Below the pieces are notes generated by a model. The model had not been told where the DNA came from. It ran no database searches and saw only the letters and a list, made by a program, of their open reading frames with translations. A stretch of 64,000 nucleotides of DNA. Origin: Bdellovibrionales bacterium (GTDB lineage: Bacteria; Bdellovibrionota; Bdellovibrionia; Bdellovibrionales; UBA1609). The DNA is taken from the NCBI GenBank assembly GCA_965219095.1, contig CBDCMT010000001.1:1280001-1344000 (forward strand), in the 5' to 3' direction. Position numbers and translations under genes: made by a program. Below, piece by piece: positions 56,653 through 64,000 of the stretch; the stretch's first letter is position 1, and the number at the start of each line of letters is the position of its first letter.

Positions 56653-58185
56653 GTAACTGCTCACCTACATTGTTCAGTTATCCCTAACTTTAGACCTGTT
56701 TTAAGATAAAAGTCTTGCTCTTACAGATTTTCTTTTAAATACTTTTTTCAAATGACAATAAATAAGACCTCCATCAGAAATGAGATTGAAAATATAAGAA
56801 GTGACTTTGATAAGCTTGCAAAGAAAGGTTCTGTGCCTACTGAGATTTCTGTGATTGTTGAATCTCTCTTTAAGGTTGTGAACATTCTGATTGTTGTGTT
56901 TTTAGAAAAACAGGTTCGAAAAAATTCCAGCAACAGCGGTCTTCCTCCTTCGCAAGATTTTAGTCGTCAAGGGAATCGTAATAAGAAAGCTAGTGGGAGT
57001 CAAAAAAAGGGCTCTAGACTTGATAACAGTAAAGATACAAACAGTGAGGAGACTGTCTCTCCCTCAGAGTGTTCTCAGTGTGGGATGTGTTTAAAGACAG
57101 CAGAGGTAAAAAGCCTTGAGAAGCGTAAAAAGATTGATATTTTTTATGAAATTCAGACCCATACTGTAACTTCTGAAGTTAAGGATTGTCCCTCATGTGG
57201 AGCTAGAAATAAAGGTCAATTCCCTAAAGGTATGAGTGGTCCTCTTCAGTATGGTATAGGCATTAGAGCTTCCATCATCAATTTCATTATAGTTCAGATG
57301 CTGTCTTTTAGAGCGTGTTGGGGAACATTACATGGGGCTTATAGGTCGAATGATTTCTCCTGCAGTTATGTTGAGATACATTGCTGAATTAGGAGAGTTT
57401 CTTAAAAGTTGGGAAGAGCAGATGAAAGAAAAGATACTTGAATCAGAGGTCATTCATGTTGATGAGACCTCTATGAGGGTTAAGGGTAAAAACTACTGGA
57501 TTCATACTTATAGTTCAGGAGAATTAGTCTTGCAGTTTCTCCACCTTTCAGGTGGAAAGGAAGCCATAAAAGATATTGGTCTCTTGGATAGATATGCAGG
57601 AGTGCTTGTGCATGATTGTTGGAGTCCTTACTTTTGTTATGATAAGATAACTCATGCTTTGTGTGTGGCTCACCTTTTGAGAGAGCTTAAATTTATAGAA
57701 GAAAGCAATGGATTCAAATGGGCTATAAATCTCAAAAAACTTCTTAAAGAGACTGTGGAGTTAGTTCATAAAAAAGAGTCAAGAGTTCTGACTCAAAAAG
57801 AGTACGAAACTCTTCAGAGAAGGTATAGGAGTATTCTTACAAAAGGCTTAAAAGAGCTTCCAGAATTTCCTAAGAAAAATGGCAAGAAAGGACGAATAAA
57901 GCATACACAAGCTCAAAACCTTTGGCTGCGATTTAAAAAGTATGAAGCAGAAATACTGTGCTTTGCTAAAAGAAAGAACGTAGATCCTACTAATAACAGA
58001 GCTGAAAGAGATCTAAGAATGACTAAAGTGAAAAAGAAAGTGTCAGGGTGTTTCAGAACAGAAGAAATGGCGAAATATTTTTGTCGTATTACCAGCTATG
58101 TTAAAACAATGAGAAATAAAGGGTATTCTTCTTTAGAAGCCATCTCTATGGCTTTAAATAAAAACTTACGAGAGTGAGCAGTTAC
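56653..58185 (+). mobile_element. IS66-family element, single transposase with one frameshift (56752..57387 and 57332..58177)
   Basis: IRs GTAACTGCTCAC/GTGAGCAGTTAC; NSSNSGLPPS, CxxC, HVDET, VHDCW, C.AHLLREL and PTNNRAERDLR motifs; no target duplication. Confidence 0.92.
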
Positions 58186-58459
58186 AAAAAAACAAGCTTC
58201 CCATGACTTGGCTTCGGCATTGGAAGAAATAAAGAGGTTAAAAAAGGAACTGGTCTATGAGAGGAAGAACGTGGTTATATTGAAAGAAGTAGCGACTTTT
58301 TTTTCAAGAGATTGTAGAGGGTTTAAACAACAAAGTAAAACTCACTATGAGAAAATCTTACGGTTTTAGAACCTATAAAGCTCTAAAAAAAAAGCTTTAT
58401 ATCACAGCATTGGAAAATTGCTAGAACCTTCGGGAACTCACAGATTCTTTTGAGGAGGC
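58186..58459 (+). mobile_element. Fused degenerate fragments of IS3 orfA and the ISL3 right end
   Basis: 58190-58306 resembles IS3 orfA; 58308-58459 resembles the ISL3 3' end. Confidence 0.75.
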
Positions 58460-58463
58460 AAAA

Positions 58464-59534
58464 TTATTTTCTTGCACAACTGTAATTTATAGTATAGGAG
58501 CCAGGATTAAGATGTGTTTCAAAAGTGATCTTGTCTTTATCTTGATTCAAAGTAAATTTGACTTGAGGATTAGGCTTGATTTCAATATCATCTTTAAAGT
58601 CACCATTGTCGTTGACATCTACAGACGAACATTCTAGAAAGATCTTTCTTGTAAGATCCTTTATAGACTCTGTAATCCCATCTAAAACTGTTGTGTAATC
58701 AAGACTACAAATATTTAGAATTTTCCCTGGAAGAATACCGTTTATAGGATCATTTGTATTTGATAACATTTCATAAAATCTTCCTTTCGCTGTTGTGTTT
58801 CTGCAAGATTCTTGAGAGGGGCTAACAATAGAATGAAACTGAAAAACTTTACTGTTTCCAAGAATAGCAACTTTTCTACTGATAAATTTTTGAACCAAAG
58901 AGGGAGATCCGTTAGATTCATCATTATCTGATATAAGAATGGAAATAAAATGAGCGTCTAGTCTTAAAAGATCATTTTGTGGGTATCTATCTTTATTCTC
59001 AAGAAAATTAATTAATGACTTTATACCTTGGTGTTCAGAAAATGGCTTAACAGATAAAATGGTCTGCTCTAGTATTTCTTGTTTTTTTCTATCAGAATAA
59101 GAATCTTGGTTCTTTAAAACGTATTTTTTAAAGTTTGATTCATTCCAAATTAAAGGCGTCATATTATAATTATTATATGCACCATTTGTAGACTGAATAG
59201 CAATCCTCCAATCTATGTTGTCTGCATTGAGTTTTTGAATGAATATGTTGATTCTATTAGATAAATGTTTTCTTTCATTCCGCATAGAACCCGAAGCATC
59301 AATGATAAATAAAAAATCAACAGGAACGGTTTCTTTGATCGTAAAGCTTTTTATTTTTTCTACAAAATCATGAGTGGCTTGAAGATCAAGTTCGACCCTT
59401 GTTGTATTTTCTGCCTTATCGTCATTTCTTTGCCCAAAATTGGTTTCAGAACATGAATTAAATAAAAAGGGTAAAGGAATGGATAAGATGATAAGAAAAC
59501 TTATGAAAATCTTTCTTATATGAATCTTTTTCAT
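58464..59534 (-). CDS. vWA-domain lipoprotein
   Basis: Signal peptide ending F-N-S-C, MIDAS-like VDFLFIIDASGSM and ISDNDE, paired Cys. Confidence 0.8.
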   Translation of the reverse strand: MKKIHIRKIFISFLIILSIPLPFLFNSCSETNFGQRNDDKAENTTRVELDLQATHDFVEKIKSFTIKETVPVDFLFIIDASGSMRNERKHLSNRINIFIQKLNADNIDWRIAIQSTNGAYNNYNMTPLIWNESNFKKYVLKNQDSYSDRKKQEILEQTILSVKPFSEHQGIKSLINFLENKDRYPQNDLLRLDAHFISILISDNDESNGSPSLVQKFISRKVAILGNSKVFQFHSIVSPSQESCRNTTAKGRFYEMLSNTNDPINGILPGKILNICSLDYTTVLDGITESIKDLTRKIFLECSSVDVNDNGDFKDDIEIKPNPQVKFTLNQDKDKITFETHLNPGSYTINYSCARK

Positions 59535-59605
59535 ATCTTCTTTTTCGACAGAAATGTCTCAAACCTTTAGTCTAAACCTTGTGTTTGTTTCTTTATCTTT
59601 GTTCC

Positions 59606-60220
59606 AGCTATGGAGATGCGTCCTATTCCAACACGCACCAGTCCCATCAAGACCAGCTCCTAATGACCGTTTTTGATTCGACTATCCGAGACCTTAATCC
59701 ACCTTTTTTAGAAGACAGATCATCTCATGGTTTTATTCCTTGTTTATCAGGTTCTATCCGACTAACGAGCTTTTTTTTAACTCACCGAAAAGTGATCTGA
59801 GTTTCCTGATAAACCGAACGATCTAAATCATCACTGTTGCTTGCCATCCTCTTCGGCATTTTTTTACTTTTCTTTAGAGGTTGTTTTATTTTTTTGTTTT
59901 TTTGTCATATCTTTTTTAAGTTTTTTGTCTCATCTTTATTTCTATTTCTATCACTCAGCTATCCGTGTCTACAGCAGGAGGATTATGTCACCATCTTACC
60001 TTCTGCCCACATCCCATCTGGACTTCATTAACTTATACATTCAGTTGTCGAGCCCGAAGCTCATGGATTAAATACCTCCTTAACATCTCACACCCACTTC
60101 TCGTAATTGAACCTAACCTCTTCATCTCTCCACTTGAAAATTCCCTAGGAATTAAACCTAAATAACTTCCCCACTTATGAGCATCCGGAAAACGAGACAT
60201 TTCATCAAGAACTGCTATTA
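59606..60220 (-). mobile_element. Cryptic IS110-family (IS1111-like) remnant: transposase fragment plus noncoding end
   Basis: Minus strand 60219-60061 translates IAVLDEMSRFPDAHKWGSYLGLIPREFSSGEMKRLGSITRSGCEMLRRYLIH; continues upstream at 62800-62819 across the IS982 insertion. Confidence 0.82.
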
Positions 60221-62794
60221 ACCCGAGTTTCGACTTTTTTCAGGGCTAAAGGCTCTAGCTAATATAAACAAATACCTCAGACTTTTGTAAGATTTTCTTG
60301 AAAAAGCAACTTACAAGAAAAAACACCTTGAGAGTTATAAAAAAACATACAAGGAGGTCTAAGATGTTTAATTCTAATTATATCATATCAATTTATGTTC
60401 TTGTCGATGATTTTTTAACCCCTCTCATACAGCAGCATCCAGAACTGGTTTGCTAAAAATAAAGGAGGTTTTTCTTGTGCTATGTCTCCCAGCGAAATTG
60501 TCACTCTTTATCTTACTTTTCCAAAGTTCTGGCTTTAGGAATTTGCCTCCTCAAAAGAATCTGTGGGTTCCCGGAGGTTCTGGCAGTTTTCCAAGGTTAT
60601 GATATAAGGCGATTTTTATAGCTTTAGAGGTTCTAAAGCCGTAAGATTTTCTCATAGTGAGTTTTACTTTGTTGTTTAAACCCTCTACAATCCCTGAGGA
60701 GAAGGTTTTTTTAGCCTTGAAGTAATTAAGAATAAGTAGCTTATGTCTTCGTATGGTTTTTGCTTCTCTTTTCATAGGTTCAATTTTTGAAAGCATGACT
60801 CGTCTCGTCCAACTGTCTATAAATTTACCAGCCCAAGTTGGTGAAACATAGGTCCATAACTGTCGGAAGTCTTCTTTTAAAAAATAACAGCGGATACTTT
60901 TTAAATTGTACTGTATTAAATGCCTTAATTTTACTTTTTCATAAGATTTTAAATTTTCTGCATTTTTTAACAAGGGCCATCTAGCTTTTGTTAAAAGGGG
61001 TTCATACCCATCTTCTTTCATTTTTTTGTGTTCTGAAGCTCTCACTTCGTCTAAAGCCTTATTGAGTCTTGCTACGATATGAAACCGATCTAATATATTC
61101 AAAGCTTGACTTGCCCTTTCCTTTATTACTTTTAAATAGGGCTTCCACATATCAGAACACACAAACTGTATATCTTTTGACTTCTCTCCTAGTAAATCAA
61201 AAAACTTGTTGAAACTCTCCTCTGTTCTTTTTTCTCCTATCCATAGCAAACGAACACTTTCTTTGCTTATTTCATAGACTAAGGTGAGATACTGATGGTT
61301 CTTTTTCCATTGTATTTCATCTACACCTATAGCTTGTATTCCCTTTAAAACCCTTTGTTTTAAACCATATTCTACGACCCATTCTACCAAAGCATAGACC
61401 TGATTCCAACTGACATGAAACTTACAAGAAACCTCTTTCCAAGACAGGTGACGACACCAGTCAGCTAAGTACTTCATGTAAAAAATTGTTAGGTTTTTCT
61501 TCCCATCTGCCCAAGGTAAATACTCAACTTTTACTCCACAGCAAGAACAATTAACTCTTCTTACAAAATAAACAAAAAACACCCTGTAACTTAAAATAGG
61601 AAGGGATTCAAAGTCCCGTGATGATTTACTGCTGTCATACACTGAACAGGGCTTCTTACAAACACTACAAAAAGCTTGGCCATTTTTACGAGCCTTAATA
61701 GGAACATTAATTGACTTTCTATCTTTTGAAAAATAAATGTCTCCGTATACAAAAGACTTCCATCTTAAACAATCATTTAGTATAGTCTTCAAAAGCATCT
61801 CTTCCCTCCTTTTTTTTTTTTTTTGAATAACATTTTAAGGCATCTGGGAAGTAGGTGCTTCTTTTTTAAAATTTTAATGTAACACAGCAAATAAAAGCAA
61901 ATAAAATGAATGTTTTTGAGTTCAATCACCGGAGGTGATAGAGGCCAGTAAGGGCCTCAAAGAACTCAAAAATACAAGATAGAATGTCTTACTCTTACTT
62001 TGATTAATATGAGCTCTTTTGGGGGATTTCTACTACTTTTCACCCACAGATTCCCGGGAGGAGCCAGGAATTTTAAAGCCTTTTACCAGTTTGCAAAAGT
62101 CTATCTTAAATCTTATTTTCCTAAAATGTTGTCTTACTCCCGATTTGTGAACATCAAAAAAGACATGGCTTTTTTGATGTTTCTTTTCTTGACAAGCCTT
62201 ATGAGTAAAACCACCGGCATATCATTTATTGATTCCACATCGATTTTTCTTCAAAAATAAAAGAATAGGACAAAATAAGGTGTTTCAAAAGTTAGCTAAA
62301 AAGAGGCAAAAGTAGTATGGGCTGGTTCTTCGGATTTAAACTCCATATTGTTATCAATCACCTAGGAGAGCTTTTAAGTTTTACCTTAACTCCGGGAAAT
62401 GTAGATGATCGAAAGCTAAGTTATGGATTTATAGTAAAGGGCTGATGGGAAAACTCTTTGGGGACAGAGGTTATATTTCATCAGATCTTTTTAAACTTCT
62501 TTTAAAGAAGGGAGTTAAGCTTATTACAAACGTCAAATTAAATATGGAGAATAAATTGATTCCCTTATTTGACAAGTTGATGTTGAAAAAACGTTCTGTT
62601 GTGGAGGTTAGTGATTGGAGTGTTAAAAGGAGAGTTTCATCTTGAGCATTCTCGCCATCGTAGCCCACAAAACTTTGTCATCAATCTTTTAGGTACTCTC
62701 ATCTCTTACTTGCTTAAAACCTAAAAAACCCTCCATTCAACTTAAAACTCAAAACAGGAGCTTCTGAACAATATATAAAAGTCGAAACTCGGGT
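60221..62794 (+). mobile_element. IS982-family element, degenerate, interrupted by ISL3
   Basis: IRs ACCCGAGTTTCGACTTTT, 5-bp duplication TATTA; fragments SYSRF, FIDST, GWFFGFKLH, GNVDDR and LFGDRGYIS. Confidence 0.88.
60545..62065 (-). mobile_element. ISL3-family element with intact transposase (60551..61798)
   Basis: IRs, 8-bp duplication AGGAATTT, 415-aa ORF. Confidence 0.95.
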
Positions 62795-62819
62795 TATTAA
62801 TAAAATTGAAGTCAAAGAC

Positions 62820-64000
62820 TGAACTTCCCCCAAAAAAGTGGACAGTTTTTATGTTCTTAAAGCCCTCCTTTGTTTAAATTCTTTTGGGCTCATGTATTTC
62901 AAGGAAGAATGCATTCTTACCTTGTTATACCAATCCATGTAAATTGCAATTTTTTTTTCCAACTCTTCCTTTGTTGTACAGTCTTTGTATTCCAGTTCAT
63001 CCTTCAACGTATGGAAAAAGCTCTCCACAAACGCATTATCATAACAATTTCCTTTCCTAGACATAGATTGCTTGAGGCCAAAGAATTTCAATTCTTTTCT
63101 AAACCCTTCACAACAATATTGAACCCCTTGATCCGAGTGGATTATCAAGCCCTCTAAGTTCCCAGAAACAGATTGGACTGCGGCTCTCAGAGCCTGTTTT
63201 GAATGAACCCCGTCCAAGCTCTCACAGAGCTTCCAAGACTTAATCTCTCGATTATAGACATCTAAAAATACAACCAAATACAGAAATTTATCTCTAAAAG
63301 GAATATAGGTTAAATCCGAACACCATACCTGGTTTTCTTTTCCTGCTTGGCTCTGTCCTGTCTTAAACAACCGAGGAGACTTAATCATGAGAGGGTTATT
63401 CTTTGTTGTTCTAGGAACATAGGGTTTTTTCTGACGGGCACTGAGATTCTTTAGTTTCATAATTCGAGCTACTTTGTTTTCTCCAGCACTCACTCCGCAA
63501 CGCTTTAATTCCCTATACACCCTGGGGGAACCATAACAGCCTTTATTTTTTTTAAAAATAGATTCTATGTTTTTCTCCAGATTTTTATCCTTTTCAAGCT
63601 TTCCCCTGGTTTTTAAAAAACTATAAAAACCAGAACGAGATCCTCTTAATAATTCGCAAATGCGAAGCACTGGATGCCCTTTCTCTTTTACATAAAACAT
63701 AGCCTTAAATCTCATTTCAGGATTTCCTTTGAAAAAAAAGCCGCTGCCTCTTTCAATATACCTACACTCCGCCTCTCATAGACCAGCTCCTTTTTTAACC
63801 TCTTTATTTCCTCCAATGCCGAAGCCAAGTCATGGGAAGCTTGTCTTTCTACTTCAGGCTTTAGAAAACGCTTCCAAGAGCTTATCACTTGGAAATTTCT
63901 CAGTCCTAGCTTCTCTGAGGCTTCCTTTGCACCTATTTCCTCTGCCAATTCAATGGCTTGCTTTTTAAACTCTTCCGAGTACTGTTTTACTTTTTCCATT
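62820..64000 (-). mobile_element. Second IS3 copy, running off the window
   Basis: Near identical to 40238-41488; ORFs 62849..63715 and 63712..63999. Confidence 0.95.

Follow-up and report, generated by a model that had tools for sequence, protein, structure and literature searches.

A dead IS1111-type element in a Bdellovibrionales genome points to an IS110 variant with a predicted RNA of three modules and an asymmetric footprint that includes a target duplication

The question raised by positions 59606..59860 of the 64,000-nt stretch of Bdellovibrionales DNA analyzed here (hereafter the window) is whether this noncoding DNA can still be recognized as the guide-RNA locus of an IS110-family element and, if so, what kind of element left it behind. 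Sequence comparison confirmed that the locus is noncoding DNA from the 3′ side of an IS110 element of the IS1111 type that is now dead (Table 1). The unannotated transposase fragment that a first-pass annotation had noticed upstream was identified as a Transposase_20 (PF02371) peptide with the catalytic-serine motif FSSG preserved. It was 84–87% identical to the full-length PF01548+PF02371 proteins P0001–P0003 among the best 120 of 171 matches of a protein search, one of which carried a Halobacteriovoraceae label. Its N-terminus was lost to a multi-copy repeat upstream (29 matches in the genome) and its C-terminus to an internal deletion that, compared to intact relatives, removed approximately 300 nt, namely the last ~60 codons and the start of the noncoding region.

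Table 1. Positions in the window of the recognizable parts of the remnant.
Feature	Positions	Strand	Basis and details
IS110 recombinase C-terminal (Tnp) domain fragment	60060..60227	-	PF02371, E 6.9e-13, over cut-off
Deletion scar	60022..60059	-	Homology ends after YLIH; alignment to L020
Module A, extra donor-type module	59951..60021	-	Hairpin 59965-60010, then GG and guide-like ATAGCTG 59956-59962
A-rich linker	59861..59950	-	Composition (19% G+C); relatives have a linker too
Module B, predicted target-binding loop	59742..59814	-	10-bp closing stem, right-target guide 59786-59794, inner hairpin, left-target guide 59759-59765
Module C, predicted donor-binding loop	59679..59736	-	Right-donor guide 59728-59736, hairpin 59688-59726, 3′ strand 59679-59687
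Right end	59603..59623	-	Subterminal inverted repeat 59610-59623, extension AGC 59607-59609, donor-derived TG 59605-59606, then GA
Predicted right-hand copy of ~57-bp target duplication	59548..59604	-	Ends at guide-matched GT^CGA, cut 59548/59547

The region 59606–59860 was, as first noticed, GC-richer than its genome (42 vs. 34%), and the perfect 10-bp stem (59742–59751 with 59805–59814), the second module and the end ...GCATCTCCATA were all present as first described, the common end of the copies continuing via GCTGG(A) to 59603. When the 255 nt were shuffled 2000 times with dinucleotides preserved, 2.35% of the shuffles contained a perfect 10-bp inverted repeat. The fold of the whole 255 nt was no more stable than that of shuffles (z −0.77; 42/200 shuffles as stable), and the region gave 11 weak Rfam matches and no family at gathering score. 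A promoter and terminator scan yielded results at or below chance. An open frame running from the linker into module B was considered as a coding tail and rejected, since the relatives' proteins stop ~60 codons past YLIH and share no homology with that frame.

The peptide 60060..60227 matched nowhere else in its own genome. The noncoding region recurred in six further partial copies, five of them with the sharp right end of the window, in agreement with the expectation that it would travel with other copies. A right end was present in six of the seven remnants of this genome (window included), with identical sequence in all six, and a left end in none of the seven. Searches of this genome with the peptide, the region and profiles thus uncovered these partial copies and neither a left end nor a full-length gene or intact copy; because no left end and no full gene were found, the element appears to be extinct here. 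Intact copies, which the first-pass annotation had envisaged as a possible new recombinase variant, were found in other genomes, where they carried three modules and long duplications. A second PF02371 match (C1:173504) and 17 PF01548 matches in this genome were assigned to other elements.

Relatives were obtained from a metagenome scan (19 loci, 5 of them close) and from genomes of the order (5/384), the phylum (5/401) and one family (2/237), these sets overlapping. A contig scan of genomes gave two loci, both false, and neither two scans of viral contigs nor plasmids contained a clade locus. A nucleotide search of 60 relatives returned only weak matches to the A-rich linker. Both PF01548 and PF02371 scored over the cut-off in the relatives P0002 and P0026, of which the window keeps PF02371 only, and D25, E69, D107, D110, and S277 were conserved in the recombinase. 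The ends of complete copies established their IS1111 type: a left end TGGA-NNN-ATGG.. and a right end ..CCAT-ARN, with subterminal inverted repeats matching at 12–14 of 14 positions and extensions of 7 nt (left) and 3 nt (right). The noncoding DNA of the relatives measured 499–865 nt to the right of the gene vs. 89–158 nt to the left, and in intact relatives it contained three modules, each built as an inner hairpin with G(G/A)ATA(G/A) after it. Its position 3′ of intact IS110 genes, together with two loops that match target and donor, supports the original interpretation as a guide locus, the extent of which had been drawn too short, leaving the third module at 59951–60021 outside 59606..59860. 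Judged from its sequence, the region is very probably a guide-RNA locus.

The loops of the predicted RNA were found to correspond to target and donor, as the first-pass annotation had anticipated for a guide: module B matched target sites and module C the left end. Thirteen of 15 sequences had, at a constant offset, a closing stem of 6–11 bp for module B that differed in sequence, the remaining two (L018 and L046) having only 5 bp, located elsewhere; RNAalifold on a MAFFT alignment did not recover this stem. Right of the cut, the target was complementary to the 5′ strand of the module, and left of it the target was identical to the 3′ strand; a top-strand complement 5′ of a bottom-strand match is the order given for IS1111 seekRNAs in the available text of PMC11187229. 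Across 7 elements and 12 sites, guide and target agreed at 59/96 right and 39/60 left positions, and pairings as good were obtained in 1/5040 (right), 266/5040 (left), and 9/5040 (both) permutations, figures to be read with guide registers set by eye, relatives that are not independent and a right-target test helped by a two-group register split. Taken alone, the left-target covariation (266/5040) is weak. The guide of the window differs from those of the relatives in its left part (GT^CG vs. C^CG). When compared to five independent right ends in its own genome, it matched 8, 10, 11, 8, and 6 of 12 positions at +59, +99, +83, +459, and +90, respectively (p 4.5e-5 vs. random genome windows), the last flank being at background level; the site at +59 (8/12) is the best one beyond the window's own right end. 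In a further fragment of the genome the right guide paired fully with the +83 site. This own-genome test is less circular than the permutation tests on the relatives.

The 5′ strand of module C paired with the left end at 22/24 variable positions, with 8/40320 permutations performing as well, in a comparison restricted to 8 elements, near-duplicates having been left out of the 12 whose left end was known. Position +4 was unpaired in 11 of 12 elements, and the hairpin of the module displayed two-sided changes among relatives. Applied to the window, this pairing predicts that its lost left end read TGGATTT.

The actual novelty, absent from the expectations of the first-pass annotation, is the long duplication of the target in relatives. 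In ten of eleven complete same-contig relatives, from five genomes, direct repeats of 80–519 bp abutted the element ends: 80 bp (80/80), ~514 bp (468 aligned, 94.5%, in a repeat array) and ~469 bp (another insertion splits the right copy, the far end of which was not visible) in G030; 519 (518/519), 304, ~340 (94.8%), and 242 bp in G664; 128 bp in G612; 88 bp in G312; and 128 bp (96.9%) in G213. The eleventh, G438:C30, had no repeat as assembled, its right flank pairing over 75–85 bp with a left flank on another contig; a second cross-contig pair in G438 shared 52–56 bp, and one left end and two right ends of that genome remained unpaired. An ambiguous locus (L019, element plus 164-bp spacer) was not counted, and L018, L020, L021, L022, and G123 were dropped because flanks or ends were missing. 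The left copy abutted the left end and the right copy continued into CCGAT, the RNA-matched site, in 11/11 cases with a visible end; downstream of unpaired right ends, the first CCGA was CCGAT, at +62 to +273, in 5/7. The right end was followed by TG at all 11 ends beside a transposase and all 6 in the genome of the window, with GA next in 22 of 25; searches free of junction sequence revealed no other right ends in three genomes. Filler bases were present at some right junctions (L055, G438 pairs).

Among 39 comparison IS110 loci, of which 24 extended at least 800 nt to either side and one was the sister element lacking the third module (L041, below), none had such an end-abutting repeat; 36 lacked any direct repeat of at least 25 bp, and in the other three the repeats were located within paralogous genes or at a distance from the ends. 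In read-derived contigs, the 80-bp repeat of G030 was assembled as a piece of its own, with roughly double the depth of the flanks, in three of four runs of one sample. No circle joint was present in the read-derived contigs of four runs of one G030 sample, such contigs dropping rare forms. The long duplication is very likely the normal footprint of the clade. Duplications themselves are visible in the relatives only; the ~57-bp duplication of the window is a prediction, the left copy of which was presumably lost together with the left end. Left copies of duplications were not found in this genome, where flank matches were paralogues or a duplicated locus. Some junctions had peculiarities of their own. 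At L080 (G030:C11:~751800–754800), the duplication begins in the last bases of a repeat of the surrounding array, which we take to be CRISPR-like. At the left junction of L087 (G213:C116), the two repeat copies are not identical: the left one agrees in its last bases with the left-target guide rather than with the right copy. The first 350 nt past the stop codon of L040, a G030 element, hold an extra insert with two TTATCCACA motifs in a long hairpin, presumably DnaA-box-like.

Module A is the third module, and in the copy of the window its ATAGCTG is identical to the right end extended by TG, the two bases with which the left end begins. The same identity of the 3′ strand with right end plus TG held at 7/7 positions in nine of ten elements and at 6/7, with a wobble, in the tenth. 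Module A tracked the end variants AGC, AGG, and AAC, and the same motif in module B did not. Two-sided changes were present in 8 of 11 predicted pairs of its hairpin (6 sequences). Its 5′ strand had no donor match, and inspection by eye found in it no guide for the upstream GA site. The third module occurred in 13 of 15 sequences, the exceptions being a truncated copy of this genome and the sister element L041. With ~38–50% identity, L041 had module B and one donor loop only and no duplication; this single loop resembled both A and C and equalled the canonical junction of the element, AGA|CG. The comparison suggests that a donor loop was duplicated in the clade, followed by a division of labour. 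The link between module A and duplication is drawn from one sister without both, placed outside the module-A elements, which group at support 86 in a quick tree. Just one such sister was found because 38, 5, 75, 14, and 101 further genomes gave no clade member beyond G438.

The model that we favor, with a probability of roughly 0.55, is that an element with a three-module RNA makes its two junctions at separate target sites and that the host fills the gap. The element would circularize, creating the junction ..CCAT-AGC^TG-GA-NNN-ATGG.., after which module B would find the target (C^CGAT in most relatives, GT^CGA here). Module C would hold the left end, and one strand transfer would join the target to it at the RNA-matched site, where the right end would be left unjoined. 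IS110 chemistry proceeds via a 5′-phosphoserine and with the top strand first, according to the available text of PMC11208158, and the left junction is what such a normal first exchange would produce. A recombinase dimer on module A would then hold the right end and the TG core, and the right end, cut 2 nt further on, would be joined to a loosely chosen GA ~50–520 bp upstream. Host replication or gap repair would copy the DNA between the two sites. The resulting footprint would be asymmetric: one end programmed, the other free, and the target restored by a long duplication of variable length. The odds that module A makes the right junction are about even, and we are equally divided on whether the clade, by duplicating its donor loop, split integration into an RNA-programmed junction and a free-site junction made up to half a kilobase upstream by a third-loop complex.

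A rival that we rate as possible, at clearly lower odds, is one-ended transfer followed by host repair. The recombinase would make the left junction only, the free 3′-OH of the right end would be elongated along the circle through TG(GA) and then switch template to the chromosome at an upstream GA microhomology, and module A would serve excision through half-match recognition of the right junction. Most duplications do start with GA, which is also the dinucleotide that comes next in the donor, and the filler bases fit repair better than a clean cut; top-strand-only integration in CazIS110-1 (10.1101/2025.10.25.684509) and donor-only excision in IS621 (10.64898/2026.08.31.748434), as described in the available portions of these preprints, point the same way. 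However, TG is always kept, as expected from a fixed 2-nt stagger, and host repair alone is not enough to explain the duplications because the other IS110/IS1111 loci, from the same genomes and order, lack them. It is improbable that the footprint arose in two steps, by scar-free insertion and a subsequent left-donor half-match reaction that duplicated adjacent DNA or made a flank-carrying circle re-entering by homologous recombination. Such a route has been proposed for expanding IS110 loci, with LD-only boundaries and in-place duplication described in the available text (10.64898/2026.08.14.744561), and the contig L019 would suit it. This route is disfavored because no ordinary right junction was found, either among the 11 + 6 right ends recovered without junction bias or in junction-free searches, and because the TG after the right end can only come from an end-to-end junction: it is contained in the circle junction and not in the canonical one, and the target gives only ..T-GA.

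Assembly artefacts around a repeated element, with the remnant as an ordinary two-loop IS1111 relic, constitute a very improbable explanation. One G438 copy was collapsed across contigs, and one extra piece of the G030:C7 locus (L082:4228–4351), a duplicated partial left end, lacked read-derived contig cover and is possibly an assembly error. Against artefacts, however, the repeat copies have diverged and one is split by another insertion, the duplications occur in six genomes and all end at the same motif, read-derived contigs back the 80-bp repeat, and other IS110s in the same assemblies have no repeats.

As far as the available texts describe them, IS1111 elements with a right-end seekRNA or bridge RNA (ISEc11, ISKpn4, ISPa11; PMC11187229; PMC11208160) share with the clade the DEDD + Transposase_20 recombinase, subterminal inverted repeats with 7-nt left and 3-nt right extensions, a long 3′ noncoding region and the target-match order. 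They have a target and a donor loop, whereas the clade has three modules and the donor TG at both ends; its right-end region is also longer (~500–865 nt) than that of the sister L041 (280). Target duplication is described as not characteristic of IS1111-group elements in the available text of PMC11187229, and amounts to 52–519 bp in the clade. The element is set apart as a variant, rather than an ordinary IS110/IS1111 member, because ten of the eleven same-contig insertions carry the 80–519-bp repeats. IS621 and ISCro4 (PMC11208158; PDB 8wt6, 9t56) have homologous proteins (E 4.5e-14 and 6.3e-14) and, in the available descriptions, similar loop-hairpin-loop guides with one unpaired position inside the right guides; they differ in that their RNA has two loops and lies in the left end, both strands are exchanged at a single core, and no long duplication results. 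The CazIS110-1 two-pathway, IS621 half-match and expanding-locus reports (10.1101/2025.10.25.684509; 10.64898/2026.08.31.748434; 10.64898/2026.08.14.744561) resemble the clade in single-strand or one-sided reactions with the left-target/right-donor junction formed first, and in their available text contain no third loop or long flanking duplication as a regular insertion product. Long variable direct repeats (8–514 bp) are likewise left by IS1549/IS1634, for which no mechanism was proposed in 2008 (PMC2266710, available part), and restriction-modification genes likewise insert with long target duplication (PMC2853133, available part); these involve DDE transposases or no transposase and, in the same texts, no guide RNA or programmed end. 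The clade protein is PF01548+PF02371 and not a DDE transposase, so that only the footprint is like that of IS1549/IS1634. Searches of openly accessible papers and preprints, including the accessible parts of PMC13626964 and 10.64898/2026.10.21.760802, brought up no IS110 that has a third loop or makes long duplications, a scope outside ISfinder, subscription journals and supplements; the bridge-RNA model sets in such supplements may include the clade.

The remnant, although dead, points to an IS1111-type variant that has three modules in its predicted RNA and leaves an asymmetric footprint with a duplicated target. IS110 recombinases are prized as scar-free two-loop editors, and resolution of the second strand is disputed in recent preprints; that step becomes testable in a natural clade whose junctions lie 50–520 bp apart and whose second junction is matched by an RNA module of its own. 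The clade also provides a way to approach long variable duplications of the target, for which the available text on IS1549/IS1634 lacks a mechanism (PMC2266710). Such elements could land in promoters, genes or repeat arrays and yet restore the target, and pipelines requiring short cores may miss or mis-bound them. If the model is true, this would be an RNA-guided 'insert and duplicate' recombinase that does not disrupt its target sequence, and no earlier long-duplication element would have had two junctions that changes to an RNA can uncouple.

The surroundings of the remnant are crowded. In window positions 56752–63999, IS66, ISL3, IS3, and DDE_Tnp_1_3 elements are piled up, and near-full-length copies in the genome number 59 (IS66), 68 (ISL3), and 35 (IS3). 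The predicted target site lies 13 nt ahead of the start codon of a 356-aa protein (58464–59534, minus strand) that has a weak VWA_2 match only (E 0.03) and shares its upstream and 5′ region with two other places. An unrelated decayed IS110-type element was present at G000:C2:522382 and 16 other places, corresponding to the 17 PF01548 matches. The similarity between the C1:173504 locus and the C1:318050 copy was traced to a shared IS end, presumably IS630-like. In the copies at C2:1590057, C1:318050, and C2:1766356 of this genome (G000), the A-tract in the inner hairpin of module B is the break point with other IS ends.
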